A stretch of 64,000 nucleotides of DNA from Eledone cirrhosa (lineage: Eukaryota), in the NCBI GenBank assembly GCA_964016885.1, contig OZ024742.1:220410001-220474000 (forward strand). Direction: 5' to 3'. The position numbers and the translations under genes are program-made. The stretch's first letter is position 1. Every line of letters begins with the position of its first letter. The notes under the pieces were generated by a model. The model ran no database searches, was not told the DNA's origin, and was given only the letters and a program-made list of their open reading frames with translations. Shown here one piece after another: positions 2,965-59,820 of the stretch.

Positions 2965-3049
<85 letters not shown>

Positions 3050-3241
3050 TAGATAATTTAATATATCAACTAACATAAGCGCACAGATGCACGTCCATGC
3101 CAGCAAATACACAGGTTATGTCATAGTACCTAGGTGGTTCAATGCAGGAGGATGCAGAACAATAATATAAAAGACGTAAAATAAGAAAATATTTTTTTAA
3201 AAAATTTTTTTAAATTTTTTTACTTACTTACTTAAATTTTC

Positions 3242-3323
3242 ACTCCAACTAATTAGTTTCTGCAATGGGATAAAGACAGTTACGTAATCCAACTGTCGAG
3301 AATTCATTGCGTCATCAGGGAGT
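3242..3323 (-). ncRNA. Type I hammerhead ribozyme
   Basis: Reverse-complement copy of 4337-4418. Confidence 0.8.
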
Positions 3324-4336
3324 CAATTCTCAGCTAAGTCTCCAGGCAATGCGCGGACACTGGCGGCTCATATAAAAATAATAATAATTCGGTAGATAGA
3401 ACAGCTGGCGAGGACTGGATTCCATGTACTGAAATTCTCACTGCTTCTAGTCAAATGGCCGATTCTAAAGAATCAATCACGTGACACAGAGGCTAGTTAG
3501 AAGGAATGGGATGGTAAGATGACTGACGCCTACTAACACCCCAAAAAATTTAGAAGTGGTTTTGGCAGGTTTGCTCGACAAATCAGTGATTTGGAGATAA
3601 ATATAGATAATTTAATATATCAACTAACATAAGCGCACAGATGCACGTCCATGCCAGCAAATACACAGGTTATGTCACAGTACCTAGGTGGTTCAATGCA
3701 GGAGGATGCAGAACAATAATATAAAAGACGTAAAATAAGAAAATATTTTTAAAAAAAATTTTTTTTTAATTTTTTACTTACTTAAATTTTCACTCCAACT
3801 AATTAGTTGGAGAAACTAATTAGTTGGAGAAACTAATTAGTTGCAGAAACTAATTAGTTGGAGTGAAAATTTAAGTAAGTAAGTAAAAAATTTTTTTTTA
3901 ATTTTTTTTTTAAATATTTTCTTATTTTACGTCTTTTATATTATTGTTCTGCATCCTCCTGCATTGAACCACCTAGGTACTATGACATAACCTGTGTATT
4001 TGCTGGCATGGACGTGCATCTGTGCGCTTATGTTAGTTGATATATTAAATTATCTATATTTATCTCCAAATCACTGATTTGTCGAGCAAACCTGCCAAAA
4101 CCACTTCTAAATTTTTTGGGGTGTTAGTAGGCGTCAGTCATCTTACCATCCCATTCTTTCTAACTAGCCTCTGTGTCACGTGATTGATTCTTTAGAATCG
4201 GCCATTTGACTAGAAGCAGTGAGAATTTCAGTACATGGAATCCAGTCCTCGCCAGCTGTTCTATCTACCGAATTATTATTATTTTTATATGAGCCGCCAG
4301 TGTCCGCGCATTGCCTGGAGACTTAGCTGAGAATTG

Positions 4337-4418
4337 ACTCCCTGATGACGCAATGAATTCTCGACAGTTGGATTACGTAACTGTCTTTATCCCATTGCAG
4401 AAACTAATTAGTTGGAGT
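4337..4418 (+). ncRNA. Type I hammerhead ribozyme
   Basis: Stem I ACTCC/GGAGT; core CTGATGA (4342-4348); stem II GCAATG/CATTGC plus GACAGTT/AACTGTC; GAAA (4400-4403); palindromic stem III CTAATTAG; GUU cleavage triplet ending at 4413. Confidence 0.8.
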
Positions 4419-4480
4419 GAAAATTTAAGTAAGTAAAAATTTTTTTTTAATTTTTTAAAAAAATATTTTCTTATTTTACG

Positions 4481-4516
<36 letters not shown>

Positions 4517-4520
<4 letters not shown>

Positions 4521-4729
4521 GAAGAATGATAAAATTTCAAGCAAAGAGTTTAATTAGGTAATGACTTACAAATTTGTTTCAGTATATATTTAATATAATA
4601 TTAATATATTTTGTAATATTATTAACTAATTATTATAATTAGCGCTTCAGGCTTTGTCTATATACTGAAACAAATTTGTAAGTCATTACCTAATTAAACT
4701 CTTTGCTTGAAATTTTATCACTCTTCGTT
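4517..4729. repeat. ~72-bp inverted repeat (fold-back) with hammerhead 3' half
   Basis: 4517-4588 is inverted at ~4659-4729. The arms contain GAAA-CAAATTTG-TA (palindromic stem III-like). Confidence 0.8.
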
Positions 4730-4849
4730 TTGAATTTCTCCTAAGTATTCAATACTCTGTTGAGAAATACATTTTACATAAACAGTCTTTGTACCATTTA
4801 TACGGTATTAATTACTTATATTTATATATATATATATATATAGCGTATG

Positions 4850-4981: not shown

Positions 4982-5009
4982 TATATATGTTTAAATATAT
5001 AGTGTAGCT

Positions 5010-8000
5010 GTGATGTATCTCGCGAGTGAATCGAGACCTGTCACTGATTTTGGTGTCCCCACTGCCGATGTGAATGAGCAACGCTGCACTTGTGAATTGG
5101 GTCTTGATGTTGCAGGCAGTTCATATACTTACAATGATGCGGTCCCACAAGCTTGTTCACATTCCTGTGCTAATAATCTAGATGGGCGTATTAAATTGGA
5201 TGTGAAAGCAGCTTACCGGATGCGGAATCGGGAGAAGTTGAGACAAAAACAGGCCGATTATAGAGCTGTGAATTTTGCTAAATTAACACAAAAACAGGCC
5301 AAGTATAGATGTTCAAAACGGTATGAGTTGGCAAACAAGCAGGCCAAGTATAGATCTGCAAATTCAGCTATTATATCTCAAAAGCAAGCCGAGCGTAGAG
5401 CTTCTAAACGTACCGAGTTGGCTAAAGAGCAGACCAAGTACAGATCTGCAAATCAAGACAAAGTATTACAAACAAAGGCTATGTATAAAATTCACCATAA
5501 AGATAATATACAGTCTTATGAGAAAACATACTATAAAAAAAAGTTTCTTCATAAGCGGTCTTTGTATCAAATGAAGAAACTAAATAAAATGGTTGACTTC
5601 CGGATGCAGCATCAGATCTTGATGTCCCAATTTGTTAAGTCATATAAAAAGACAATAACAGATACCAATCTTCGCAACGACGCACATAGTCACGTGCTGA
5701 GTGTGTTCTCCAGATCTGTTGGGATGCGAAATTTTGTGTGTGCTCAATTAAAAATAAATGTTAAAGCTGTGCATACATTGATGGAAAAGGTCAATGCTAA
5801 CGGTTTGTTGCATTATTGGGGAAATCAACATTATCACAGTTCCACCAATGAGCTTCCTAATTTTGACAAGAGCACTGCAAAGTACATGAAAATGGATGAG
5901 TTTAAAAATCAGTCCGTTGAGAAAGTCCGAATAGTCGTTATCAATAATGAGGAGACAGACAACATTGTGAATGACATGGCTAATGCTGACGAGCAGAATG
6001 ATGATAATGATGTGTCTAAATGTTTGGTTAGACCTCGCGGGTCTTCCATATTAGATACATGTCCAAATGACTCAGCTGCTCGTCTAACTTTGTGCCAAAG
6101 AATTGATGATAAACTTCCAAAACTCAATCCCGATATGACAGTTGCTGAAATAAGGCAGTTGATCGAGAAATATGAGTTTTGCAATGTTACTCATGATAAT
6201 GATCAGCACTGCATCGGTAAAACTGGCTGCACCAGTGAATTTGGCTTTTTAAAATCCATAGCAGTTCACTCGCCAAAGTTGCGCACATTGCTGAGGAAAA
6301 TTTATAAAGTTCGGTCCTTATGTATTTGGCTCAACAAGTACAATGAAGCTGTTTTCAATGGCGATTGGACCAACTTTGAGAATTTGACAGACGTTGCCAA
6401 CATTGAGCGTGCTATTGCAGTTAAATTCAATAATATGTGCACTGGTTTCAATGATGTCGAACACACTGATGCAGATGTCATTCATAAATATGGTAATCAA
6501 GTTCAAAGATTTCAATCTGAAATTACCAACTATAAAATCCAACATTGTCATATCTGCAAACTGCGCAAATATAGCAAGGAACTAAAAGTTTGGGATAATT
6601 GGAACTCTAGATATTTTAAAACGGCCGTTGCAAAGGATGCAATAACTGCCAACTACTCTTTGCCTTGCACAGTCTGCACAACATGCACTACACATTTGCG
6701 CAACAGTGGGGTGCCTTCAATGGCCTCAATAAATGGCTTGGGCGTTGCTGCCGTTCCCAAAGAACTTGCTGATCTTAATACATATGAGCGAATACTTGTA
6801 CAACGGGCCAAATGTTTCGTCAATGTAATAAAACTGGTGCCATACTCATTCAAAGGCAATATTTCAGCATGCATTTCCGCTATTAAAGGAATTGCAATTC
6901 ACTTGCCTTTGCCTATGGACGGAACTATTAACCGCACCATGGATACGTTACCTGCGCTTCAAGACGACATGCTTAAAATAGTCGTTGATAGCTTGCCTTC
7001 GCGGAAACAAATTATCTGGCGTTCAATGGTAGACATGAGTAAAGTATTGAAGGCACTTGATTGGCTTGCAGCAAACAATGTAATGTATGCCGATGTTAAG
7101 ATCAATCGCTACGCCGATACGGAAAATGAAAACATTGTCGAGTGCTCGGGAGTTAATAATGCCAAATTCGATAATCTTTTAGTTAAATCGAATGCTGGCA
7201 TTACCTATGAGCATCACACTGTTAGAGACATGAATCCGTGTCTCCCTGCAGACACTGACTTGGCCTTGTACAAAATGAAAAGAGTGGAAGGCGATTTTAT
7301 TGCAGACAATGATAAAAAACTTGAGTTGTTGTGCTTTCCTTGTCTTTATCCAACTGGTCAGTTTGGCATTTTCGTGGACAATAGACCGTTTGGCGCTGTA
7401 AAGCCATACATGTTCATAAGAAACAGACTGAATCATAGCGACTCTAGATTTCGGCGAGATATACAATATCTCATGTTTTGTCTTGATAAAGCCGACAAGA
7501 GAGGCATTGATTCTGGTATATATGCCATCATGAAGACCACCAAAAACAGCCGCATGACTATAAGCGAGTTTAGAAGGCGGCTCCATGAAAATGACAGGCA
7601 CCTAGAGGGCAATTTAAATATGATGATGGCCAATGTTCGTGGTTCCAAGCAGTTTTGGTCTAGAAAATGTTCAGACTTGATGGCTATGGACGAGAAATTT
7701 GGCCCGGCCCACTTGTTCTTAACTTTGTCTTGTGCAGAGTACTTTTGGCCTGATCTGAGAGAGTTCCTGGAAAAGTTGAATGCTGACATACCAGACATTT
7801 CTAGAAAACGCACCAATTAGTTGTGCGCGGATGACGTGGTGGCTGTTAGCGAACATTTTCACCATCGGTTCACCACCTTTATGAAAGAAGTTGTTAAACA
7901 TACCAATTCTCCGTTTGGTATTGTCGAGCACTTTTTTTAGAGGTTGGAATACCAAATGAGAGGTGCTCCGCATGTTCACATGAAATTATGGATTAAAGAT

Positions 8001-11000
8001 GGCCCTATTATGGACAGAGACGACAACTATGCTATTCAGACGTTTATACAGTCCATGATCACATGTCGCATGCCGTCCAATGTAGAAAGCCCCGTTTTGT
8101 CAGACTTGGTGTTGCGTTTTCAACGACATGTCTGTAGTGGATCCTGCAAAAGGCAAATATGTTCGAGTGGTCGTTTTTACACTCGATGCAGGTTTGGATT
8201 TCCTCGTCCTATCGGGAATTTCAATTTGCTTAGCGTCAACGAGTGTATAAAATCTCGACACAAAGGTAGAGCTGTCAAAAAGTTGTACAAGCTTGACAGA
8301 CGACAAGGGGAAGAGTGCATCAATGACTACAATCCTGTTGTTCTGTATGTCTGGAAAGCTAATGTCGATATCCAATACATCGGTGAAGATAGCATGATTC
8401 TAAACCGATATGTTACTAGTTATCAGACAAAGTCCGAAAAGACTGAAACTGAAGGTATTTGGGCTGAGATTGACAAGTCCAAGTCCATTTACTCCAGATA
8501 CAAGAGTGTCGGACTTAAGCTGATGGGCAAGCGTGATACAGGTGCCTATGAGGCTGCAGACAAATTGCTTGGCCACCATTTTTATGGATGCTCTGAAAGC
8601 CTCATTTGGATTGGAGCCGATTTGCCTAGTTACCGATCCCACAGGTTCAGGCCTCAGTATGAACTGGATAAATTGAAACCGTATTCTACCGATCTTTATT
8701 ACGAGAATATGGTCGAAAATTGGTATCCAAACAGGCCTGATTCGATGGAGCACATGTGTTTGTATGAACTTGCGAGTAAATACGAACATGTGAATCCAAT
8801 TGGTAACAGCAATTTTGATGACGACTTCAGGTTGAGAAATAATCTTGGCTATTTCAAATCTGTGAAAGAGCGGATTGTGAAGTCGCCAAACATTAGATTG
8901 ACTGCAGATACCTGTGATCGCTATCACCACAACCTGCTTATGCTCTTTAAATCTTGGCGAGACGAGGAAAAAGACTTGCTGGGAGGTTGTGAGACTTATA
9001 AAGAGTCTTTTGAACAGTGCGCAAACCATTTATCTGAAATGGTCAGGTTCCAGAATGTGCGCAAACGTTTGGAGAATGCGCTGGAACAAGCCAAACATAT
9101 TCCAAACGAACCTCAGTCTCATGATAATGATGACCATTCTTGCGGTGATCACATGGAGGCGTTGGCAGTTGATGATGCTAATGTCGATTTGCCTTGCATG
9201 AGAGATGTCGCTGAGGATGCACTGAGGCATAAAGAAAATAAACTGAATGAAGTGCAAAGAAAAATTTATGACGATATCGTTGCCGGTATTGACAAACAAG
9301 ACAAACATTGGGACAACAGCAAACCTTATCCGAGATGTAGTTGCGATGATTGTCCACAAGTCTTGAAATTTGTTTCAGGTGTTGGTGGCACGGGCAAGAG
9401 TTTTTTGATAAATGTACTGGCTGATAAAATTCAGTACATGTATCCAAATGACAATGGCCCGAGCGTAGTGATATCGGCACCCACAGGAATGGCTGCTTTC
9501 CAACTCAACGGCATGACTGTTCATCGAATGCTAAAGCTCAAAGTGCAGCACGGTAAAACTCCCGTGTACGATGATCTACCAAAGGACTTTTTGAAAATGC
9601 TGAGGATGGGGCTTCAATATGTCCGACTGATCATAATCGATGAGATTAGCATGGTCAGTCATTTGCAGTTGGCATTCATTCACTTGAGATTGTGCCAATT
9701 GTTTTGTGACTTTGCCCAAGGCATTTCTCCTTTCGGGCGAATGAACATTGTTGTTTTGGGAGATTTGCTTCAATTACCGCCTGTTAGAGAAAAGCCGGTG
9801 TTTAACAAAGTTACTCACCAAGATGCACAAAGATCATGCATAGGAGTCAGCAGCCACCATTTGTGGAGGTACTTCAAGTACGACGAGTTGACAGTCAACA
9901 TGCGTCAGAAAGAAGACTTGGATAATTATGTTGACATGCTCGGCCGAATAAGGCTGGGTTCACCACTTGATTCAGATATTGAAATTCTAAATAAGCATAG
10001 AATTGATCTCAACGGCAAAGCTTCCATTGATCAGGTTGCTTACAAAATGTGTGAGCTGATACAGACTTCTAATTTGAGTATCGTCTGTGTCATGCCTCTA
10101 AACGAGTCAGTAGAAAAGTTTAACGCTGCAATGCTCAATAAACTTGGCATTAATACCGTTGAACTTATGGCTATTGATTCGAATATGAGGCAAACCAAAT
10201 GTCAAAAGAAAACAAAAAGAAAAAAGCTGACCACTAAAAAGACTTCTGATACTGCTGGCCTTGAAACTGTTCTTAAAGTTGGCGTTAATGCTCGAGTTAT
10301 GCTTAAACGCAACATCGATCTTGAGAAAGGCTTGTGCAATGGTGCAATGGGAACTGTAAAGCAACTCAATTATGAGTTTGGAAAAATGACTTCCATTGAC
10401 GTTCTCTTTGAGAGTACAAACCAAATTGTTGCCATCAAACGTGTCAAAGCCGATTACGAATTGTCTCCTAGTGTTTTTATCACTAGAGAACAATATCCCT
10501 TGTGCATTGCATATGCAATTTCCATCCACAAATCACAGGGAATAAGTGTCGATGGAGTCGTTGTTGATTTGGGCACTGGCGTTTTTGCAGACGGTATGGC
10601 CTATGTAGCCTTGTCTAGAGCCCGCAAACTGTGCAATGTTTACTTGATTGATCTTGATCCAACGAGTTTGATCATGTGCGACTCTAGTGCTTGGAGAGAA
10701 TACAATTATTTGAGAGAGACCATTAATATGGGACCGCTTCCATTGTGTAACGTGAGGCCCAACAGTATTGGACAGGCCAAAAAAGCAACTAAAAAAAGTA
10801 AATTTGCTATTAATATTGACAGTGGAATGGTCAACTTGGCGAATCCAAAAAAGGCCAGAACTGAGAAAACGGTTGCAAAGCCGTACATTTCGCTGATCAA
10901 TGAGAGAAATGCTTGCTTTGTAAACAGCACCATGCAAGTTATACGCCAGCTGGTGTTGTTGGTTGAACACATTCAGTCCACTGATGATGTTGCTATTCGT

Positions 11001-11733
11001 GAAATTAGCGATATTATATCGTCATCTGGAACTAAATCGGTCGCAAATTTGAGAAATATTCTCGGCGGCAGGTTTAATGATGGTACCCAACAGTGTGCGC
11101 ACGATTTTTGGAAGCACATTTATCAGTTGTTCTCTAAAAAAATTAAACAACTATTCACCTTTGAGGAAAATACTTGGCTCAGCTGCACTAGAAAACACGA
11201 GCACAATTGCCCCAGATTGCACAATGATGAATGTTATTGTGCATCGATCAACGGCTGTGGCACTTGCACACATATAACTGATGTCAAGTCTGATCTGACG
11301 TTGCAGCCTGTTAATGGTCGGCAGCAATTCAAAAGCTTGCTCAAAACTGATGTTTCGCTCATTAAGAGATGCGATCTGTGTGGCATTGACACCGAGCACT
11401 TTGGTACAGTTAACCATGTATTTCCAAACACAATGCGTTACTTGGTTGTTTATTTGAATAGATTCGAATATACAAACAATCAGATGATCAGAATTGATTC
11501 TGAGTTGATGAATTTCTCTCCGAACAAGCATCAGCATTTACGGCCAAAAATTCCGACTAATCGGCTCCGTCTTGCATTCACTGGCTAGTGCAGACTCCGG
11601 GCACTACACCAGCATCGTCCGCAATCAGGACAGATGGGACATTATTAACGATGCCGTCTTTTCCAAGCAGTATATAGGTTTCCCGTCGAAACTGCTTAAC
11701 AACTACCTGTTGTTTTTAGAAAAGTTGAATTGA
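5010..11733 (+). pseudogene. Helitron/Helentron-like RepHel (HUH Rep + PIF1 helicase) fused to a USP/C19 peptidase domain, disrupted
   Basis: ORFs 5010-7820 and 7944-11588 are in the same frame, separated by TAG 7818-7820 and TAG 7938-7940. Rep motifs HLFLTLSC, EYQMRGAPHVH, YVTSY. PIF1 motifs GVGGTGKS, APTGMAA, IIDEISMV, GDLLQLPPV, SIHKSQG, YVALSR. USP motifs NERNACFVNSTMQ, QQCAHDF, YLNRF, and after a +1 shift near 11527 GHY..W..ND..YLLFLEK* (stop 11731-11733). Confidence 0.9.
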
Positions 11734-13874: not shown

Positions 13875-14323
13875 CACTCATTGATCCATTTTGCACTAAC
13901 TCTGCATCAAGCACCCTCACCTAAATATTAACCAATCAAGGATCCAATACAGCTATCTGTTGGATGAGTATTGTATAGTGCCAAAAACGAAACCAATCAG
14001 TTTAGCAGAAAGTTTCCAGACAAGAAACACGCATATTTTGCTATCCTCAAACACGTTTACACATGGCATGAAATATAACTAATCCGAGATGGCTAGGTTT
14101 CATCTTCTAACTGGATATACGAAATCCATTATGTCTTGACAACAACATGCGGTAACATTATGTTATTCACAGACACACTTTGTACACTGTTCCATATCAG
14201 AATGTATTTCCTTCGTCACATTCACAAACAGTATTGAAAATATGTTCTTCGGCAAATAAAAATGTTTTGTTCATAATATTTCAACTAGCGATTGCTCTAC
14301 TCCACGCACGACCACCATAAATT

Positions 14324-14507
14324 AATTGTTTCTACTTTTGGCACAAGGCCAGCAATTATCCCAGTGTATTACTGGTACTTTATTTTATCGACCCCGTAAG
14401 GATGAAAGGCAAAGTTAACCTTGGCGGGATTTGAACTCAGTCCGTAAAGGGACGTAACTGTGCTGTAAAGCACGGCGTCCGACGGTCTACCGATACTGCC
14501 AATCCAC
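14324..14507 (-). mobile_element. tRNA-derived Nin-domain SINE
   Basis: B-box GAGTTCAAATCCCG and core GCCTTTCATCCTTACGGGGTCGATAAA. ~20-bp TSD CACGACCACCATAAATTAAT. A more decayed + copy follows at ~14527-14712. Confidence 0.85.
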
Positions 14508-15263
14508 GACCACCATAAATTAATGACCAGCTCAACACAAATATTGGTAGAGCGTCAGACACCATGCTTTGCAGTATTGTTATGGTCCTTTGCATTCTAA
14601 GTTCAAATCCTGCCGAGGTTAACTTCGACTTTCATACTTACTAATTCGATAAAATAAAGTACCAGTAATGGACTGCCGTAATGGATTTGTGCCGAAAAAT
14701 AGAAACACTATTAATGTGCAATAAGAGCAAAATATAACGACATTGCTCAATTATTTTATCTAATGTTGTAATAACACAAGGAAATGTTGTTTGTGTATTT
14801 TTTTTTATATTTGCTCATAGGCTTTTACAATTTCGCTCAGCCAACAACTATTAAAAAGTGAGTTGCTTAAGATAACAATTTAATCACAAATTGTTGCTAT
14901 CTTTTAATACACTCCAACAAGTCATCAAATTATGTACAATAAAAACAAATCTTATTAATTTGCTCAGGGAATATAAAGAAAATGTATATACACTGATAAT
15001 TGCAATTGTATGTAAATATTTTGTTTTTGTATTGTTTATTTTATGTTTTCTATTATGTATAATATATTGATTTAATATTGATTGTTTTTTGTAGTTGTTT
15101 ATATTAAAAGTCTGAAAATATTTTTATACATCTTACACTAATATTTATAAGATAATTTATAATAACAATTACATAATCTAATTACATTACAACGCTAATT
15201 TATTATTAATATATATCCTGTTTAACTAGAGTTATTACAAGCGTTGCCTTAAAAAAATATTAA

Positions 15264-16317: not shown

Positions 16318-16353
16318 TCTTAACATTTCGGACGCTAGTCCTTCATCAGAAGA
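16318..16353 (-). ncRNA. Minimal type I hammerhead ribozyme (Penelope pLTR type)
   Basis: TCTT-CTGATGA-a-GGAC-tagc-GTCC-GAAA-TG-TT-AAGA on the minus strand. Confidence 0.65.
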
Positions 16354-22492: not shown

Positions 22493-23308
22493 AATTATCA
22501 ATATTTGAAACAAGCACCTAATGTGTTTTTAGTTTATATACATGTTACGTGTTTAGTATGCAACGAAAAAGATTTTTACACTAAAAAAATATATTTTTCG
22601 CATCTTTCTACCCACATATTACGTTTATAGTAAACAATGAAAAACATTTTTATTTAAAAAAGAATAGTTTTGTACTTCATTTTTTTACATCAAAAGGAGT
22701 AGTTTTGTTCTTTATCATGTGTGTAGTACACATCGAAAAAGATTTTCTTTAGATAAAAAAATTGTTTTTGTACTGTTGTACTTACATGTTACATATATAG
22801 TAAACAACGAAAATATTTTTACATCAAAAAGAATAGTTTTGTACTTGACCGGTTTCGCCTAAAACGCCTTTTCAAAGGATTCTGTTATGATTCATTTGCT
22901 AGTTTTCCATTTGTAATGTTATTGTCGCTTAAACAAGGAACGCAATTTGTTGTATTTTTGTCTCTTATGTCAAGGCCTTGTTACTCTGGAGTTCCACCTG
23001 TGCACTCGCAGTATCATCAGACAAAACTTGTCTGATTTTTCTGCTAATGCACAAGTAAAACTCCAAAGTAACAAAACTCTTCGCGTAGCTATCAAATGAA
23101 TATTTAAACTCTACTTCGGGATTTAGTACTTTTTCTCACGTCCCTCAATAATAAATGGATCGGTGCCTCAGCCAGATGGCTGGAACATGTAAAAGAGTAA
23201 AGAGTATATATATGTGTGTGTGTGTGTGTGTGTTGGATTCTTATAGAATTCCAGTAATAATCAGGAACTGATTATACAGAGCGGTTGCTGGTCCAACAAA
23301 AATTGAAA

Positions 23309-23740
23309 ATTAGAATTGGTGCTCTGAAATAGCGATATATATATATGAATGTATACATAGTGTATTTTGCAATACACTGTATGCTTAATTAAAAGCATTT
23401 TGAAGACCTTACGCTATTGTTTTAAAGTAGTGACTATGTCACTTACTTCTTTTTTCAACAAACAAAGGGAGATAAGCTGACAGATCTCTGTTTCATACTG
23501 TTGGTATTCCTCAGAGCTTAGCACTCCCCTTGTTTGTCGAAAATTATGAATGTTGGATTCTTATAGAATCTTATAGAATCTCCCTTTGTTTGTTGAAAAA
23601 AGAAGAAAGTGACATAGTCACTACTTTAAAATAATAGCGTAAGGTCTTCAAAATGCTTTTAATTAAGCATACAGTGTATTGCAAAATACACTATATATAC
23701 ATTCATATATATATCGCTATTTCAGAGCACCAATTCTAAT
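23309..23740. repeat. ~160-bp inverted repeat enclosing a hammerhead (inverted pLTR-like)
   Basis: 23309-23470 is inverted at 23580-23740. Confidence 0.85.
23473..23520 (-). ncRNA. Type I hammerhead ribozyme
   Basis: TAAGCT-CTGAGGA-ATAC-caaca-GTAT-GAAA-CAG-agat-CTG-TC-AGCTTA; all three stems pair and the cleavage triplet is GUC. Confidence 0.8.
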
Positions 23741-27029: not shown

Positions 27030-27124
27030 ATTGGTGCAGTTATGCAATCATTGTGATATGCCGGTGACCATGCACGGATGGACGTGCATGGCCACATGCA
27101 TATCACAATGATTGCATAACTGCA

Positions 27125-27129
<5 letters not shown>
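27030..27129. repeat. Near-perfect 100-bp hairpin
   Basis: ATTGGTGCAGTTATGCAATCATTGTGATATGC pairs with 27098-27129, with an inner CCATGCACG/CGTGCATGG stem. Confidence 0.85.
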
Positions 27130-46242: not shown

Positions 46243-46308
<66 letters not shown>

Positions 46309-46378
46309 AAAAAAAGCTGGAATCGAAAATGCAACTGGAGTCTTATTTTAAAAAAATATATATATATTTATTTGGTTC

Positions 46379-46414
46379 CTTTACCGGTTTCGCAGTTCTT
46401 CTGCTTTTCAAAAG
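46379..46414 (-). ncRNA. Minimal hammerhead, U3-A8 variant
   Basis: CTT-TTGAAAA-GCAG-aagaa-CTGC-GAAA-CCGG-TA-AAG. Confidence 0.65.
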
Positions 46415-47502
46415 TAGAGTTGAGATGGAGGGTTTGTGGTTTTTCTCACATCTGGTTGCTCTTTGAATGTTACTTGTTTTATATGGAAAAAAGTGGCTCG
46501 AAACGCCAGGTTTTTAGAGAAGAATTTTGATTGATTGGTCAATAAGTATAATAAATTTCGCGCCAGTTCGCGTTACAAAGTTCTTCAAACAAGGGGGGGG
46601 GGCTCAGGTTGTTTTTTCATATATGAGTGTTTGAATTTCTTTTTACTTAAAAAAAGGGGGCTCACGAAGGCTTTTTTTTTTAATGTAATTTGATTGGTTA
46701 TAAATAAAATTATGGCTGTCACGTGAACAAGTTCATTAAATTCGCACCCGTATTTGGGAATTTATTTTGTAGTCTTTTAGAGAATTTTATGACAATAAGA
46801 AAAGTTGCTCACGAAGGCGTTTTTGTTTTTTTAATGTAATTTGATTGGTTATAAATGAAATTGCGGATGTCACGTGAACAAGTTCCGCGCCCGTATTTGG
46901 GAATTTATTTTGTAAACTTTTAGAGAATTTTATGACAAGCAAAAGAATGGTCAAGAGAAATGGGATGGGAGAATTGTTCTGGTTCAGTGAATATGGCTAG
47001 TTCGCTGGGGTGTCAGAGTTCAGATTTTCTATTGAAATAAAGAAAGTAGACATGTGTATGTTTATTTGTGTGTGTGTGTCTGTGTGTGTATAGGAAGATG
47101 ATTCTATTGGTAGAAATGGGGGAGGGAGTTGTGTGTGTATGGGTGTTATGTGTGTGGGGGGGTGGGAGTATGTTAAGATAGAGAGAATATATATATTTTG
47201 TGTAGGAAAGTGGTTCTATTAGTAGAAATGGGGGAGGGGGTTGTGTGTGTGTGAGGGGGGGGGGGGGTTATCTGTGTGTGTATGGGTGTTATGTGTGTGG
47301 GAGTTTGGTTAGCATGTTAAGATGAAGAGAATATATATTTTGTGTGTGTGTATGTGTGTGTTTAGGAAAATTATTCCGTTAGTAGGAATATTTTTGAATG
47401 AACATATTTTCTTTACTTATTCGTATTTGTTCTGTTGTATTGTCAGCGCAAACGTATGTTAACGTTTATTTAGTTCGCGTTTTTATTTTCTAAAGTAGGT
47501 GT

Positions 47503-47626
<124 letters not shown>

Positions 47627-49479
47627 GATGGTTAGCATGTTATGGTGTTGACATAATGCATATTAAACCATATTTAATGCTGGTCTATATTTTTGAATAA
47701 ACATATTTTCCTTATTTATTCGTATTTGTTCTGTTGTATTGTCAGCGCAAAGGTAAAATGGGAAGACTTGGAATTTGGGTGTCTTATTACTTGCGCAAAT
47801 GTCTAGATGTGCGCTTAGTGATATCTGTCTCGTGGTTGGATCTCGTAATTGTTGGCGATGAACTGTCATTCTATTTCTGAGTGTGAGTTTAGTTTGTCCT
47901 ATATAATCTTCATTGCATCCTTTACATGGTATAAAATAGATTTTTTTGATGAGCAAGTGAAGTGATTTTTTACAGCAAAATTTTGTCCTGATTTAAATGT
48001 ATACGTGTTGCCTTCAATGAGGTGAGTGCAGGTTCCACAATTAGAGCGACCACATTTTTTGACAGTTGGGTTGTGGGTTTGTGGTAGGTAATTTGGCATT
48101 GGTGAGTAATGTTTTTAGTGATTTCGGTATGTCTTTTGCTTTTGATTATTTTGTGTGTTTCAAGGGCTTTTTTCATTCTTGGGTCTTGTTTCAGTAGTGG
48201 GATGTTCTTGTGAATAGTGTTGTAAGCTTCCGCATTTCTTGGGTTGTGTGTTGAGATATATGATAAAATATTGGACGTACCTTGAATTTGTTTCTGTTTT
48301 CGTAATTCATCAATGATTATTACTTTAGCCCTTTCTATTCCATTATTTATTAGTAATGGTGGGTACTGACTTTCGAGTAGAATCTCCTTTAATTCTTGAA
48401 GTCTTTTATTTCGCGTTTCATAATTGGAGACAATTGTGCAAATTCTTCTTGCTAGGTTAAAAGGAATGTTCGTCTTCGTGTGCTTTGGATGGTTGGGGGT
48501 GAATAGCAGGTATTGTTTGGAATCTGTTGGTTTGTAGTGTATGTCAGTTTCAATATTTGTGCCTTTTTTAAGATTAAGATGTCCAGAAATGGGAGTTGAT
48601 CTTGGCTGTTTTCCATTGTGAATTGGATGTGGTTATTGATGCCGTTTATTAAATTTTTGAAATCATTCAGTTGATCGAGTGTGTGGGGCCAAAGATTGAG
48701 ACAATCATCCAAGTAGCGTTTCCAATTTTCTGATAAATATTTGTGGAAGTTCAATTCGTATTTTAATTTGGACTATTCATAAATCTAGACTTCCAAGTAT
48801 GCCATGACTAAGTTGGGATAAGTCGGAGCGGCTTTTGTACCCATCGCAGTCCCCGATATTTGCTTGTAAGTACTGCATCGAAATCAAAAAAGTTGTTCTG
48901 TAAGATAAATTTTAATCCCTCGGTGATGAAGCTTTTTTTTATTCTGCCAGGTATGTCATTGGGATATTTCTCTAGGTTTAATATACATTATGTCAACACC
49001 ATAACATGCTAACCATTCAAACAGACACATACACACATAACATCTTCTACTTTAGAAAATAAAAACCCGAACTAAATAAAACTTAACATACGTTTGCGCT
49101 GACAATACAACAGAACAAATACTAATAAGTAAGGAAAATATATTCATTCAAAAATATTCCTACTAACGGAATCATTTTCCTACACACACACACACACACA
49201 CACAGACACACACACACACACACACAAAATATATATTCTCTTCACCTTAACATGCTAACCATACTCCCACACACACATAACACCCATACACACACACATA
49301 ACACCCGCCACACACAACTCCCTCCCCCATTTCTACTAATAGAATCACTTTACTACATACACACACACACAAAATATATATATTCTCTCCATCTTAACAC
49401 ACTCCACACACACACACATAACACCCATATACACACACACCAACTCCCTCCCCCATTTCTACCAATAGAATCATCTTCC

Positions 49480-49604
<125 letters not shown>

Positions 49605-50248
49605 AAATAAACATACATATGTCTACTTTCTTTATTTCAATAGAAAATCTGAACTCTGACACCCCAGCGAATTAGTCATATTCACTGAACCAGAACAATT
49701 CTCCTATCCCATTTCTCTTGACCATTCTTTTGCTTGTCATAAAATTCTCTAAAAGGCTACAAAATAAATTCCCAAATACGGGTGCGAAATTTAATGAACT
49801 TGTTCACGTGACAACCGCATTTTCATTTATAACCAAGCAAATAACATTTTTTTTTTAAAAAGCCTTCGTGAGCAACTTTTTTTATTGTCATAAAATTCTC
49901 TAAAAGGCTACAAAATAAATTCCCAAATACGGGCGCGAAATTTAATGAACTTGTTCACGTGACAACCATAATTTCATTTATAACCAATCAAATTACATTT
50001 TTTAAAAAAAGCCTTCGTGAGCCCCTTTTTTTTAAGTAAAAAGAAATGAAAAAACAACCTGGACCCCCTCTTGTTTGAAGAACTTTGTAACGCGAACTGG
50101 CGCGAAATTTATTATACTTATTGACCAACCAATCAAATTACTTCTCTAAAAATCTGGCGTTTCGAGCCACTTTTTTCCATATAAAACAAGTAACATTCAA
50201 AGAGCAACCAGATGTAAGAATAACCACAGACTCTCCATCTCAACTCTA

Positions 50249-50281
50249 CTTTTGAAAAGCAGAACTGCGAAACCGGTAAAG
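50249..50281 (+). ncRNA. Minimal hammerhead, U3-A8 variant
   Basis: CTT-TTGAAAA-GCAG-aa-CTGC-GAAA-CCGG-TA-AAG. Confidence 0.6.
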
Positions 50282-50417
50282 GAACCAAATAAATATATAT
50301 ATATTTTTTTTAAATAAGACTACAGTTCATTTTCGATTTCATCTTTTTTTCTTTATACTTTCACTCGTGTAGGACACCTCGGTTATTTTTCATTTTGTAA
50401 AAAAGCCTCACTTTCTA

Positions 50418-50534
<117 letters not shown>

Positions 50535-51786
50535 TTCATTCATTTATTATAGCAATTGTTGAGCTTTGTTACTCTAAAGTTTCACCTGCACACTCACAGG
50601 ATCACCAGTCTTGTCTGGTGGGTACGCAGATGAGACTCTAGATTAACAAGGCTTAGCCATAATAAATGAATATTTAAACTCTAACTCGGTATTAAGTTTT
50701 CATTCTTACGTCCGTCAATAATTCACGTACTCTCAGGTCTTGAATAATGCCCCCCTTAATAATTTGTCAGATTTTTGCCACCACCCACCCACTTATTAAA
50801 TTTTGTTAATCTATCTCCGGCAAAATTCATCATTCATATTGATACAGCAGCTGGAGAATCTAATAATAATTTTATTTTACATTAAAAAAAAACATTATAT
50901 ATGACAAAAGAAGAACATTACAAGAAATTCCATATTTACGAACGTACACTAAACAATTACTGATTTCCAAGCCACCCCAATTATTGCCACCACCCTTCCT
51001 ATAATTTGGGATCCGAGAGTGCCAACAAACTCTCCTCTGTTCTATGTCTATCACACAAATCTCTCTTTTAATCCCCTCTCTCTATCTACTAAAACCAAAC
51101 CCAACCCCTCTTTATATCTACCACGACACCGCCTCTCTTATCCCATTCTCTACATCTAAGACTAATAAATCCACTCTCTCACTCTATAAATATCTAAACT
51201 TATCTCTCCCAATCCCCACTCTCTATATAAATTACCAGCAATCTCCCCCCCCCCTCTCTATATCTACTACACGGTACTCTCTTCCATTCCCCCTCTCTAT
51301 ATCAATTAACACCAAACTCTCCCCCTCTATATATCAATTAACACAAAACTCTCACCCTCTCTATATTTAGTAGACGGAACTCTCTTCAAATTTCTCTATA
51401 TATATCAATTACCACCAAACTATCCCCCTCTCTATATCTACCATACAACACTCACTCTCATTCCCTCACACTCTATCCATCACTACCAAACTCTCCCCCT
51501 CTGTATATCTACTACACAGAACTCTCTTCAAATTCCTCTCTGTATATCAATAAATATCAATTTCTCCCCCGCTCTATATCTAATATACAACACACTCTCC
51601 CAACCTTCTTCCCTATGTCAATTACCACCAAACTCTCCCCCTCTCTATATGTAGATATATTTCTTCCATCGCTCTCTACATTACATGTACATAAATTGTA
51701 GCGCATATATATATATAGGAAAATGTTTAACCCCGACGGCATAGCTCAAGCCGTTTCGACGGCTGTATATATATATATATATATAA

Positions 51787-52131
51787 ATTGAAAAAGTGAA
51801 GAATAACATGGTCAACAGTACAAAAAAGGGATTTATTTATAATCTGACAATTGTTTCACTGATTAAGTTGTTTAAAAATTGCTGAACACTTAAAGCAGTG
51901 CCACTCAATTTCAAATATGTTGTTAGCTTAACCAGATCATCGATGATCTGGTTAAGCTAACAACCAGTTATCTCCGATGGTCTGGTTAAGCTAACATCGT
52001 ATTTGAAATTGAGTGGCACTGCTTTAAGTGTTCAGCAATTTTTAGACAACTTAATCAGTGAAACAATTGTCAGACTGTAAATAAATCCCTTTTTTGTACT
52101 GTTGACCATGTTATTCTTCACTTTTTCAATT
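51787..52131. repeat. Fold-back pLTR-like repeat with decayed long-stem-II hammerhead
   Basis: ~150-bp arms and a 46-bp perfect palindrome at 51919-51964. GAAA-CAATTG-TC-AGA near 52060-52074. Confidence 0.85.
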
Positions 52132-53727: not shown

Positions 53728-53805
53728 GCTGTCTGAAGAGAGCATGGCAGTGGATTCTACGCCGAATTGCGCAGCCAATGTCGTCCTCGAAATATGTATC
53801 ACAGC
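53728..53805 (+). ncRNA. Type I hammerhead ribozyme
   Basis: GCTGT-CTGAAGA-GAG...CTC-GAAA-TATGTA-TC-ACAGC followed by AATAAA. Confidence 0.75.
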
Positions 53806-55559: not shown

Positions 55560-58500
55560 GACAGACAACGCGATCAGTCGCATATTTTGGCGTGGGAGAC
55601 TATTTATTAAATTTAAGATGAATACTATCTCCGATAGTAATGCCACAACTACAGCCAGGTTGAATAACTGGTTATTCTTCTATCTATCCCTTCTGAAGAA
55701 ACCTTTTATTCGAATTCGTAGAGATATCCGACTAAATACATAATTCATTTTACAAGGATTTGCTACAAACAGCATGGCCGAACACAACATCAACAAAAAA
55801 ATTAAGGAAGTACCGAAGACAAATAACAAGGAAGGTAATCAAACTTTATTCAGTTGCAGCTACAGAAGAAACCGAAATTATAAATCGCATTTCTCTTGGA
55901 ATTGCGAACTTAATAATGATTTATTTAATTGTTATAAAATGGCAAAAAACAATCCCTCCATTGGCTATATGAGTAGAATGAAGCTACACTGGGACGAAAT
56001 GCACCCAGAGCTAAATTATTTCACAGCGAAACAATTACGCCAGCAAGCGACGTTTGCTGAACGTAAAAATAAGATAAATATTATTAATTGTAAGTCACCA
56101 ACAACAAACATGTTATCAACAACACGTGCTACATGTCGCCATGCTACTAGACTTCCTAGCAGCCAGGTCGAACAGCGCCTTGAAACAACTATGCCTGTAA
56201 GAAACTTGACACCACTTGTACCATCTAAGTCTACCTCGAATGCTGGGGAAAACACTATCGATAATAATAATAATCGAATAAATTTGACACCATGTGTACC
56301 ATCCGAGTCTACCTCGACTGTTGTGGAAAATACTATCGATAATGATAATCAAAAGTATAAACAATTGAAAATTTCCCTCAACGAAATCTTCCAGAGAGAA
56401 ATTAACTCATGTATAAATATCTCTCTTGCTGAACGTGTTAATACGACAATGTTGAATAAAAAACCAAATAATGAAATACTACGTGTTATTGATGAAATAG
56501 GGGATGAATATTTACGACGGATAAAAACCCCAACATTTTGGCAAATCAACGCCTCTTTATATGCCCTAGCAACGACAGTGAAGCATTATCTTGGTGATAG
56601 CAGAGATATTAAAAAGAGCAAAACACCACCAAAAATACCATCATATATAACTAAAATAGAAAAAAAGAATGCTGACCTACGAAAAAACATAGGATATGTG
56701 ACAATGCTCTTTACATGCAAACAAACACAAAAAGAACTCACTCCTCACCAACAAAGAGTGAAAAATAAAATAGAGACAATGTTTGGTAACAGTATAACCA
56801 TAACTCTCCAATATAAGCTGATCACCCTCAAACAAGAATTGAGAGCTGTTAGCGAAAAACACCGATACCTGAAGAAGGTAGATGAGAGAAAAGTGCTTAA
56901 TAAAAGATTCAGACGAAACCAAACATCAGTCTATAGAGATATGAAGGGCAAAATAATTGTTTCTACTATTGGCACAAGGCCAGCAATTACCCAGTACATT
57001 ACTGGTACTTTATTTTATCGACCCCGTAAGGATGAAAGGCAAAGTTAACCTCGGCGGGATTTGAACTCAGAATGGCAAGGGCCGTAACTCTATGCGTCAA
57101 AGCATGGCGTCCGACCCTCTACCGATACTGCCAACTCACCAATAAGTGTCACTGAGGCCCCATCCCAGAAAGACAGATTCCGTTTGGAGAAAAAAATGGG
57201 GTGAAAAGAAGAATTTCAACAAAGATGCAGTGTGGCTAGAGAAATCCGAAAGAACTATTGCTCCTACACTACAACAAAAACATACGAAATAAGTGAAGGT
57301 ACCCTTGAGACTGTGATAGGAAAACTCCAAGATAAGAAAACACCAGGAAGAGACATGATTGTCGGCTACTGGTACAAAAAACTGATATTCTATCGGAGGT
57401 ATCTTACTGACCTCTACCAACAAGTTCTTAAGGGAGATACACTTATACCAGAATGGTTGACATTAGCACAAACATTACTGGTCCCCAAGAACGAAGACAC
57501 CCACTTGGCAAAAAACTACCGACCCATTGCATGCCAGAACCTGATGTATAAGATGTATACAGCCTGTCTGAACCTATTCCTCCAAGATCACTGTGAAAAT
57601 AATAACATCATCACAGATGAACAAGCAACTGGAAAGAAAGGGTTTTGGGCTGAACAACTCCTAATCAACAAAACTGCGATGTCGGAGGTGCGATAACTTA
57701 GGAGGAATATGGCTACAGTCTGGCTAGACTACAAGAAAGCTTTCGATTCTGTTCCCCACTCTTGGCTGATAGAGGCCCTCCAACTTGCTAAAGTCCCAGA
57801 CATTATTGTCAGAGCCATAGAGAGGCTGTCTTCTTCTTGGGCTACTATCCTAAGGTTAAAGACAGAGAGGGAGGACTCTATTTTCACTGATAAAATAAAA
57901 TATTGCAGGGGTATATTTCAGGGGGACAGTCTCTCTGTGATATTATTCATCTTGTCATTAAACCCCTTGTCCTTTCTGCTCAAGAAATGTGAGGGATACA
58001 TCATTGGCTCACAGGAGGACAGAAATACGAACCTAACCCATAATTTCTTTGTGGACGATCTGAAACTCTATGCCAAGAACATGGATGAGATGAAGAAAAA
58101 TCTTGACCTGGTTACAACGTTCTCAAAGGATATAGGAATGGAGTTTGGCCAAGATAAATGTCCATATATGACTGTAAAGCGGGTAAAAACAACAACCCAA
58201 TCTAGCAACATTGTCATCAATGGCCTAACTGTTTCACTGATATCTGATGAGGACTGCTACAGATACCTGGGGATAGATGAGAACATATCCTATAATGGTA
58301 TCTGTAATAAAGAACGCGTAACCAGGGAATACTACACCCGATTAAGAAAGATCTGCTCATCGGAACTCTCTGCGCAAAACAAAACAGTGGCTCACAATGT
58401 GTTTGCTGTGCCTGTCCTAACACCAACGTTTGGCATACTCAATTGGACGATAGACGAAATCCGAGCAGTTGATGTTGGAACTCGAAAAGTACTGAACAAC

Positions 58501-59820
58501 ACCGAAACTTCCACATCAACAGTGACATAGACCGCCTTTACTTGAAACGTAAGCAGGGAGGCAGAGGCCTAACATCAGTCCAGACAACATTTGAATGTCG
58601 CATCATATCTCTCCGACATCTACGAACCTCGAAGTGTAGGAGCCCGTCTCTCGAGCAAGTCTATCTGCATGAAACAGATAAGATCATGAGAGTTGGGAAG
58701 GAGCTCCTTGAGAAATATTCCCTGTGTGATAATCAAAAACTCACACCCAGGGATGTCGCTCAGCAGTATCTCAGTGAATCCATGGATGAAAAACTGCATG
58801 CCTATCAGCAAAATATCATGCATGGATATGTTGCCAGAAAGCTCTAGAGTGAGAGTAATATAGATAAGGAAAGTAGTCTATCTTGGACCAACAACCGCTA
58901 TATTGACTCCCACCTTGAAGGATACGCTTTTGCAATCCAGGAACAGGAGATTAGCACGAAATACCTGATTCACAAAAGAGATAGGGATGCAGGCAAAGCA
59001 CCTAGATGTGATAACAAGTGCAGACTCTGCAGAACTAACATCGAGGATATCACCCATGTCATCAGCAGCTGTCCAAAGATGTCATCGCGGCACTATCTAC
59101 CTATGAGGCATGATGTAGTGGCCAAAACACTGTACAATGCAGTTCGTAAAAAAGATAGCCCCGATAATAAACACATTAAAAGCTACAACAATGTGGAAGA
59201 CATCCATGTACATAATATGAAAGAGTATTGGTGGAATGTTCTAGTAAAAACCCCAATAAAATGCAGTTATAACAGACCAGATATTATGATATAGGACAGG
59301 GAGAAGAAAACATGCACAGTAGTGGAAATTAGCTGCCCAGCAGATGCCAATATAATATCAAAGATTAGCGAAAAGGAGAATATTTATGCAGAACTGATGA
59401 GAAATCTGCAGATACTCCACCCTGATTACACCTTCAGATTTATGCCTGTGGTTATTGGGGCACTGGGATATGTTAGTAACTGCCTCAATACAAATCTTGA
59501 GAAGTTAGGCTTCACAGGAATAGAAAGAACACAACTAGTTAGGACATTACAAGTAAAATCCATTAATGGAACAGTAAAAATGTGTAAAACATTCCAAAAA
59601 TTTTCCATATAATAACTGCATATACACATGTACAGATACAAACTATATATACATGCACACATACAACTCAAAACATACACATCCATATCTACACATGCAT
59701 GCATACATACATATCTACCTAGTTGATGTGTAAATTCCAATGAGAGAGTATTGTGTCTATGTTAGAAACCGACTCTCTCTCTATTGGTAAAACTTTGTGA
59801 AATTATAAGACCAGAAGAAC
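55560..59820 (+). mobile_element. Near full-length R4/Dong-like RLE non-LTR retrotransposon (disrupted)
   Basis: KNYRPI, WLDYKKAFDSVPH, GIFQGDSLS, FVDDLKLY, YRYLG, GGRGL, CCHC, RPDI and EISCP over successive ORFs. Bounded by CATA/CAGA repeats. Confidence 0.9.
56952..57140 (-). mobile_element. Nin-domain SINE inserted in the R4-like ORF
   Basis: Accounts for the C-terminal IIVSTIGTRPAITQ...DERQS of ORF 55774-57048. Confidence 0.9.

Follow-up and report, generated by a model that had tools for sequence, protein, structure and literature searches.

Probable palindrome priming and slippage at the helix III join of an inverted hammerhead-bearing repeat in Eledone cirrhosa

How do two copies of a short non-coding repeat come to lie head to head, with the point of inversion itself repeated four times? 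The question is raised by a locus of Eledone cirrhosa, for which we analysed a window of 64,000 nt (assembly GCA_964016885.1, contig OZ024742.1, positions 220,410,001 to 220,474,000 of the forward strand; coordinates below count from the first base of this window). A first-pass annotation had noticed a palindromic word iterated at the inversion point, had equated it with part of a hammerhead ribozyme, and had read the array as the footprint of repeated reverse transcriptase (RT) template jumps or snap-back priming at a self-cleaved RNA end. How Penelope-like elements (PLEs) form inverted copies (PMC8557442) and what purpose their hammerheads serve (PMC11167929) are both stated as open questions (citations here and below refer to the accessible parts of each text). 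Our preferred reading, to which we assign a probability of about 0.58, is that a head-to-head insertion was made in a (TA)n tract, that its join formed by fold-back or annealing at the helix III palindrome and that three slips of 17 bases followed, with a Penelope-like RT as the likely enzyme.

The insertion is a head-to-head inverted duplication of a 554-bp non-coding repeat, centred on a palindrome array of period 17 from which two near-identical arms run outward, the left of ~1.35 and the right of ~1.14 units. The left arm (3051–3796, minus strand) starts at the predicted ribozyme cut and runs leftward through a 550-bp unit and ~196 bp of a second unit. The right arm (3841–4490, plus strand) comprises 19 nt preceding the cut, a 554-bp unit (3860–4413) and 77 bp of a second one. 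That 3051–3796 is the reverse complement of the unit and 3841–4490 its forward copy places the array at a genuine inversion point, as the first-pass annotation held. The unit, of 550–554 bp, GC 0.37 and a longest stop-free frame of 53 codons, is present as partial head-to-tail tandems in both arms; no further copy was found elsewhere in the 64-kb window. Over one unit the arms are 97% identical, with no spacer between them, forming a nearly perfect 630-bp inverted repeat, and outside an A/T tract only two substitutions separate them. The outer flanks are not mirror images, and the arms are also unlike in length and tract structure. Both outer ends join (TA)n with an overlap of 4–5 nt: in the left tract (2988–3050) the AGAT at 3047–3050 is a 4-nt repeat of the first templated bases, and the right tract (4486–4517) shares a 5-nt TATAT with the element. 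Any target-site duplication is unreadable inside such a TA tract.

The A/T tract occurs in four part-units (3885–3914, 4435–4463, 3187–3216 and 3742–3771), where its length is constant (29–30 nt) and its A/T boundaries shift; one 11-nt block of it reads as a micro-inversion when the two left-arm copies are set against the two of the right arm. We tried the tract and the AAGT copy number as lineage markers and rejected them. They pair the four part-units in contradictory ways, so that they do not separate a snap-back of a single cDNA from two primed cDNAs.

The palindromic 12-mer stands at 3797, 3814, 3831 and 3848, at an exact period of 17, with GGAGA, GGAGA and GCAGA as spacers, precisely as annotated. 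Copy 1 (3797–3808) is the inversion crossover window and forms with its flanks a perfect 20-nt palindrome (3793–3812). It is followed by the stutter (3809–3847, plus strand), which consists of GGAGA, copy 2 (3814–3825), GGAGA, copy 3 (3831–3842) and GCAGA, and then by copy 4 (3848–3859), which lies in its native context, GCAGA before and GGAGTG after. The two GGAGA units duplicate 17 bp without a mismatch, and Tandem Repeats Finder (TRF) reports 3797–3863 with period 17, 3.9 copies and a score of 127. Two further copies, at 3247 and 4402, lie in normal ribozyme context, bringing the total in the window to six, where shuffled windows average 0.01 and none of 100 shuffles reached six. Among the six perfect palindromes of at least 8 nt in the unit the word ties for the longest, the other 12-mer being an A/T run; it would for this reason attract a join anyway, ribozyme aside. 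Its computed stability as a DNA self-duplex is -10.5 kcal/mol; as a hairpin it is computed to be weak (-0.3 to -0.9 kcal/mol), which counts against the preferred reading.

Each arm carries one complete hammerhead-like motif of type I, at 3242–3323 on the minus strand (core 3318–3312, H17 at 3247) and, by fold scan, at 4337–4418 on the plus strand. The latter has stem I at 4337-41/4414-18 (5 bp), the core at 4342-48 and stem II at 4350-55/4393-98 (6 bp), with C4349 and A4399 unpaired, GAAA at 4400-03, a palindromic helix III at 4403–4412, the triplet GUU at 4411-13 and a predicted cut after 4413. The CUGANGA/GAAA core and UH triplet are present, with a minus-strand equivalent at 3318, and the predicted fold sets three helices around the core with helix I open. 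In hammerhead position numbering, the 12-mer spans A14, A15.1, helix III, U16.1 and H17 of this fold, in agreement with the earlier equation of the word with helix III plus the UH site; GGAG is likewise the first sequence after the predicted cut. Base 11.1 is not directly before G12, since A4399 sits between C4398 and G4400, in both arms; of 14 indels in public runs, the 12 displayed include no deletion of A4399. The hammerhead fold is predicted at -19.8 kcal/mol and the minimum free energy fold, which hides the core, at -22.3, the latter being 2.5 kcal/mol more stable. From the GUU triplet, the unpaired A4399 before GAAA and this more stable core-hiding fold, only weak cleavage is predicted for the motif. 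Each arm has a single complete motif, not the two consecutive motifs called 'active' by Li et al. (2026), a difference that bears on the activity of this copy and not on the family.

At gathering score none of 4227 Rfam families gave a match, and no hammerhead was among the 18 matches at E≤10; those of miRNA type were set aside as reflecting only the long hairpin. A hammerhead scan that does not allow unpaired stem II bases misses the motif of the 554-bp unit. Candidates at 53733 and 23938, two of the three strict-scan matches, were lost in a second scan and rejected. In metagenomes a 21-mer had no match, and six 18-mer matches were dismissed as chance: in none of the six was there a core in the 100 nt upstream, and in none did homology extend past the motif. 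At 16318–16353 (minus strand) a third hammerhead-like motif stands alone, with a short helix III and an extra base before stem II; it lies ~90 nt before a (CA)n tract and has no second copy in the window.

The locus has the appearance of a non-LTR retrozyme insertion whose mobility was likely supplied by a PLE. We class the repeat as of non-LTR retrozyme type, its motif being non-canonical, and the whole works like a PLE-type inverted insertion; the earlier classification as an inverted pLTR/retrozyme-type insertion is in this respect supported. Retrozyme features are the head-to-tail unit of a few hundred bp, the type I motif (non-canonical at one position), the lack of coding capacity and a GC content below 50%; PLE-type features are the head-to-head copy with a junction palindrome and the (TA)n target at both ends. 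Metazoan non-LTR retrozymes (PMC7229834; bioRxiv 10.64898/2026.07.22.740005) are likewise non-coding, low-GC (37% here) tandem units with a type I motif, and they share more-than-unit copies and a proposed mobilisation by PLEs; unlike them, each arm here has one complete motif. The 554-bp unit is longer than the 150–450 bp of Cervera and de la Pena 2020 (PMC7229834) and falls inside the 51–972 bp of Li et al. 2026 (bioRxiv 10.64898/2026.07.22.740005). As to inverted copies, which the accessible parts of the two texts do not describe, the word 'inverted' is absent from the former and occurs once in the latter.

Palindromic inverted joins are already known for PLE-type mobile elements. Arkhipova et al. 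2013 (PMC3846280) report PLE copies inverted head to head, whose junction palindromes they interpret as signs of self-priming, and Craig et al. 2021 (PMC8557442) describe inverted 5' PLE copies with a (TA)n bias. The inverted pLTR insertions of EN+ PLEs in these papers share with our locus the inverted 5'-end copy, the junction palindrome, the (TA)n bias and the lack of a readable target-site duplication. Here, unlike there, no PLE ORF is attached, and the junction palindrome is a hammerhead helix III iterated four times, neither of which is mentioned in the accessible parts of the two papers. For PLE hammerheads, Cervera and de la Pena 2014 (PMC4209133) give a palindromic helix III, dimers and low activity, and motif pairs on opposite strands 100–700 bp apart. 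The motif described above shares with these the short helix I, the long helix II, a palindromic helix III that lends itself to folding as a dimer, the G10.1-C11.1 pair and one base left unpaired between 9 and 10.1; it differs in the extra unpaired A before GAAA, the GUU triplet and a longer palindrome (10–12 nt). A PLE protein can cut and extend both strands, hammerhead cleavage not being needed in vitro (PMC11167929); its priming proceeded without homology, whereas an overlap of 4–5 nt is seen here. Our literature search, which lay outside most subscription papers and supplements, found nothing tying helix III to inversion joins.

The spacers of the array can be derived from the native unit. 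A microhomology pair (4395–4417, plus strand) flanks the palindrome in its normal context, TTGCAG at 4395–4400 and TTGGAG at 4412–4417, 17 nt apart. Single backward slips between these two words have two products, GGAGA and GCAGA, and the two (2/2) are the only spacers present. A greedy decomposition of the join gives microhomologies AG and TTG at the last two switches and places the first GGAGA at an unrelated 5-mer; we read this first unit from the slip enumeration instead. Beyond the anatomy, the palindrome and the single-slip origin of both spacer types, which are read directly, the course of events that we infer is as follows. Both broken ends of the TA tract would prime cDNA on an RNA longer than one unit, either multimeric or circular, that came from a single source copy. 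The left cDNA would end in the palindrome and would either prime itself or anneal to the right cDNA by way of the self-complementary 12-bp word, in either case adding GGAG. The new end, TTGGAG, could then realign to the template for TTGCAG 17 nt back and the palindrome would be recopied, twice through AG and once through TTG, before synthesis ran on into the right arm. The ribozyme would act at the join as a DNA palindrome, and its self-cleavage may set the start of the left arm and would be unnecessary for the stutter; the slipping could be the work of the RT or of a host polymerase active in end joining. One fold-back or annealing step followed by three slips is enough to explain the join, so that a cleaved RNA end is not required.

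Comparable joins are known from the snap-back junctions of R2 cDNA (PMC11371274) and from the templated insertions of synthesis-dependent microhomology-mediated end joining (SD-MMEJ), made in multiple rounds of microhomology synthesis (PMC5728401). In both, as proposed here, a 3' end primes on its own strand and re-anneals at a new microhomology, in several rounds; those junctions come from engineered systems, whereas ours would be read from one genomic join. Several observations weaken the slippage account. The slip microhomologies are short (2–3 nt exact, 5/6), and the TTGCAG/TTGGAG pair is one of 15 comparable short-range near-repeats in the unit. The account has n=1 for the 554-bp family, the sequence does not date the stutter relative to the insertion, and the second of the GGAGA units may have been duplicated later. 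It also counts against this account that on both arms the predicted cut marks the limit of the crossover window. Among the 12 of 49 window ORFs scanned we identified neither a PLE reverse transcriptase nor a PLE ORF (RT plus GIY-YIG) sharing the pLTR.

A stronger proposal, which we put forward tentatively and regard as doubtful, is that the palindromic helix III, by which these hammerheads can function as dimers, also offers the DNA a place to prime itself or anneal when a Penelope element drives insertion, the ribozyme cut fixing the start of one arm. If so, the ribozyme would be the cause of the inverted, head-to-head copies that characterise PLEs and retrozymes, and iterated palindromes would be its footprint. 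Taken alone, the locus is one insertion of a known type whose stutter has a simple local explanation; in its join the joining step can be read with unusual clarity, as a palindrome fold-back followed by repeated slips at short microhomology.

Other inverted insertions in the window provide controls. There are 29 inverted self-matches within 3 kb, nine of them self-centred, and all nine were inspected. A second hammerhead family lies head to head at 23231–23740, with a 320-bp unit and ends in (CA)n and (TA)n. Its motif is a canonical-looking type I on the minus strand (core 23514–23508, predicted GUC cut after 23479), and its short arm starts 5–6 nt after this cut. At its join (23559–23579) there is a 10-bp stutter, located at a hairpin ~90 nt before the cut and not at helix III. 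In the insertion at 51786–52131 (inverted duplication to 52298, adjoining (TA)n) our scans detected no hammerhead. The join here (51938–51964) has a 19-nt fold-back from an 8-nt palindrome, after which synthesis switches through AAC; at the one base that tells the arms apart, the fold-back has the A of the short arm and not the G of the long arm, and the order of fold-back and switch is directly readable. Two more inverted duplications, at 4517–4730 (to 4815) and 27030–27129 (from 26860), have a short arm ending at (TA)n, together with filler or a short spacer, and the former adjoins the right TA tract of the 554-bp insertion and has a 70-nt spacer with AT-rich filler. Long-arm extents were assumed for 51786–52131, 4517–4730 and 27030–27129, and the remaining four self-centred matches (14321, 26355, 28507 and 46125) showed no clear fit and were left out. 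Because they also occur at 23559–23579 and 51938–51964, away from helix III, stutters and fold-backs are a property of inversion joins generally and not of the ribozyme site. In both hammerhead-bearing inversions (2/2) one arm nonetheless starts at the predicted cut or no more than ~6 nt from it, a sign that the cleaved end plays some part; under uniform placement such starts have probabilities of ~0.046 and ~0.043, calculated post hoc and, for the first, confounded by the palindrome.

Four of 24 public sequencing runs (X1, X24, X4 and X5) were compared with the unit. It matched 1404 contigs of X1, 6478 reads of X24, 9 contigs of X4 and 3 contigs of X5, in many variants, which points to many copies, depth not being a copy number. 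T4335, common to both arms, is a minor allele in X24 (A in 1357 of 1500 reads), as is A4012, also common to both, in the public runs (G in 926 of 1066). Since the arms share these minor alleles and differ by two substitutions, they probably derive from one source copy in one event. No piece among the contigs or reads listed spans the join. X1 has low-depth contigs on the bins 3778–3829 (mean 3.3 and 12.3, where family contigs elsewhere sum to 1e4–6e5); with the pieces not itemised, this is only consistent with a real join. The right arm's T4157 is in no X1 contig, so X1 may not hold this locus, and its depth of ~170 on 3830–3881 may come from other copies that contain a 17-bp duplication or from ordinary copies aligned to this position. 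The X24 library appears to have been cut at AATT, a site that also lies within the palindrome, and its zero depth at the join is for that reason meaningless. Piled X24 read ends (4048, 4051, 4227, 4271 and 4359) were considered as element 3' ends and rejected, all five of those shown coinciding with AATT, and we take them to be cuts made in preparing the library. One opposite-strand joint in X24 (4299/4321; 3 reads, 2 starts) is too thin to use and may be an inversion elsewhere or a chimera. No RNA run holding the unit is listed among the 24 runs.

These observations bear on three other explanations. The account first offered has an RT jump repeatedly between self-cleaved RNA ends, each palindrome copy starting at a cleaved 3' end, and we consider it unlikely. 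It would require about six jumps, against one fold-back and three slips on an uncut template. Every palindrome copy does end at the predicted scissile bond and the left arm can start exactly there, as the arm of the 320-bp family starts 5–6 nt from its own predicted cut; yet each arm of the insertion runs through one intact ribozyme, and the motif is predicted to cleave weakly. The cut falls inside the TTG slip window, and the GCAGA unit could be accounted for by a single jump to a cleaved 3' end, but the two internal jumps go through AG and the cut lies outside two of the three slip windows (AG, +3 to +4). Template jumping has been reported for the R2 RT (PMC11371274); on the other side, joins without a ribozyme also show stutters or fold-backs. 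We therefore keep snap-back priming from the earlier mechanism as the likely first step and find template jumps at a self-cleaved RNA end unsupported, as stated, as the source of the repeats, both spacers being products of single 17-nt slips.

Expansion at the DNA level is unlikely: a single central palindrome would have come first, and the array would have been added later, when the unstable inverted repeat underwent replication slippage or was repaired by end joining with the help of the TTGCAG context found 550 nt away in both arms. Long palindromes undergo centre revision, which we count in favour of such a history together with the perfect 17-bp duplication of the GGAGA units and the high identity of arms that lack a spacer. 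SD-MMEJ, moreover, produces such junction repeats (PMC5728401). Other inverted insertions of the window, however, have join-proximal fold-backs that read as made during joining, and the GCAGA unit passes into the right arm without a break, just as if that arm had been extended upstream by 7 nt. That the array or the inversion is a read chimera or an assembly artefact seems very improbable. The absence of the join from the listed pieces and of T4157 from the X1 contigs would fit an artefact, but the arms differ in length, tract structure and two substitutions, the outer flanks are not mirrored, the window holds several similar structures and the low-depth X1 contigs at 3778–3829 are at least consistent with a real join. 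The preferred reading remains priming at the palindrome followed by slippage.

Several other mobile elements share the window. Two long ORFs (941 and 1215 codons) at 4995–11588, with matches to Helitron_like_N, DUF6570 and PIF1 helicase and a weak match to UCH, are a Helitron split by one frame break. A broken non-LTR retrotransposon at 55744–59294 has an RVT_1 match, the sole RT found among the 12 of 49 ORFs scanned; its C-terminal motifs resemble a restriction-like endonuclease (RLE), and the RT presumably belongs to an RLE-type LINE. At 46302–50357, inverted arms of ~1.1 kb (83% identical) with 151-bp tandem units near each end are possibly a DNA transposon with long terminal repeats. A dispersed short repeat with a tRNA-like box, which we take to resemble a cephalopod SINE, lies at 14317–14715 and nine other places (10 matches to one 60-nt piece).
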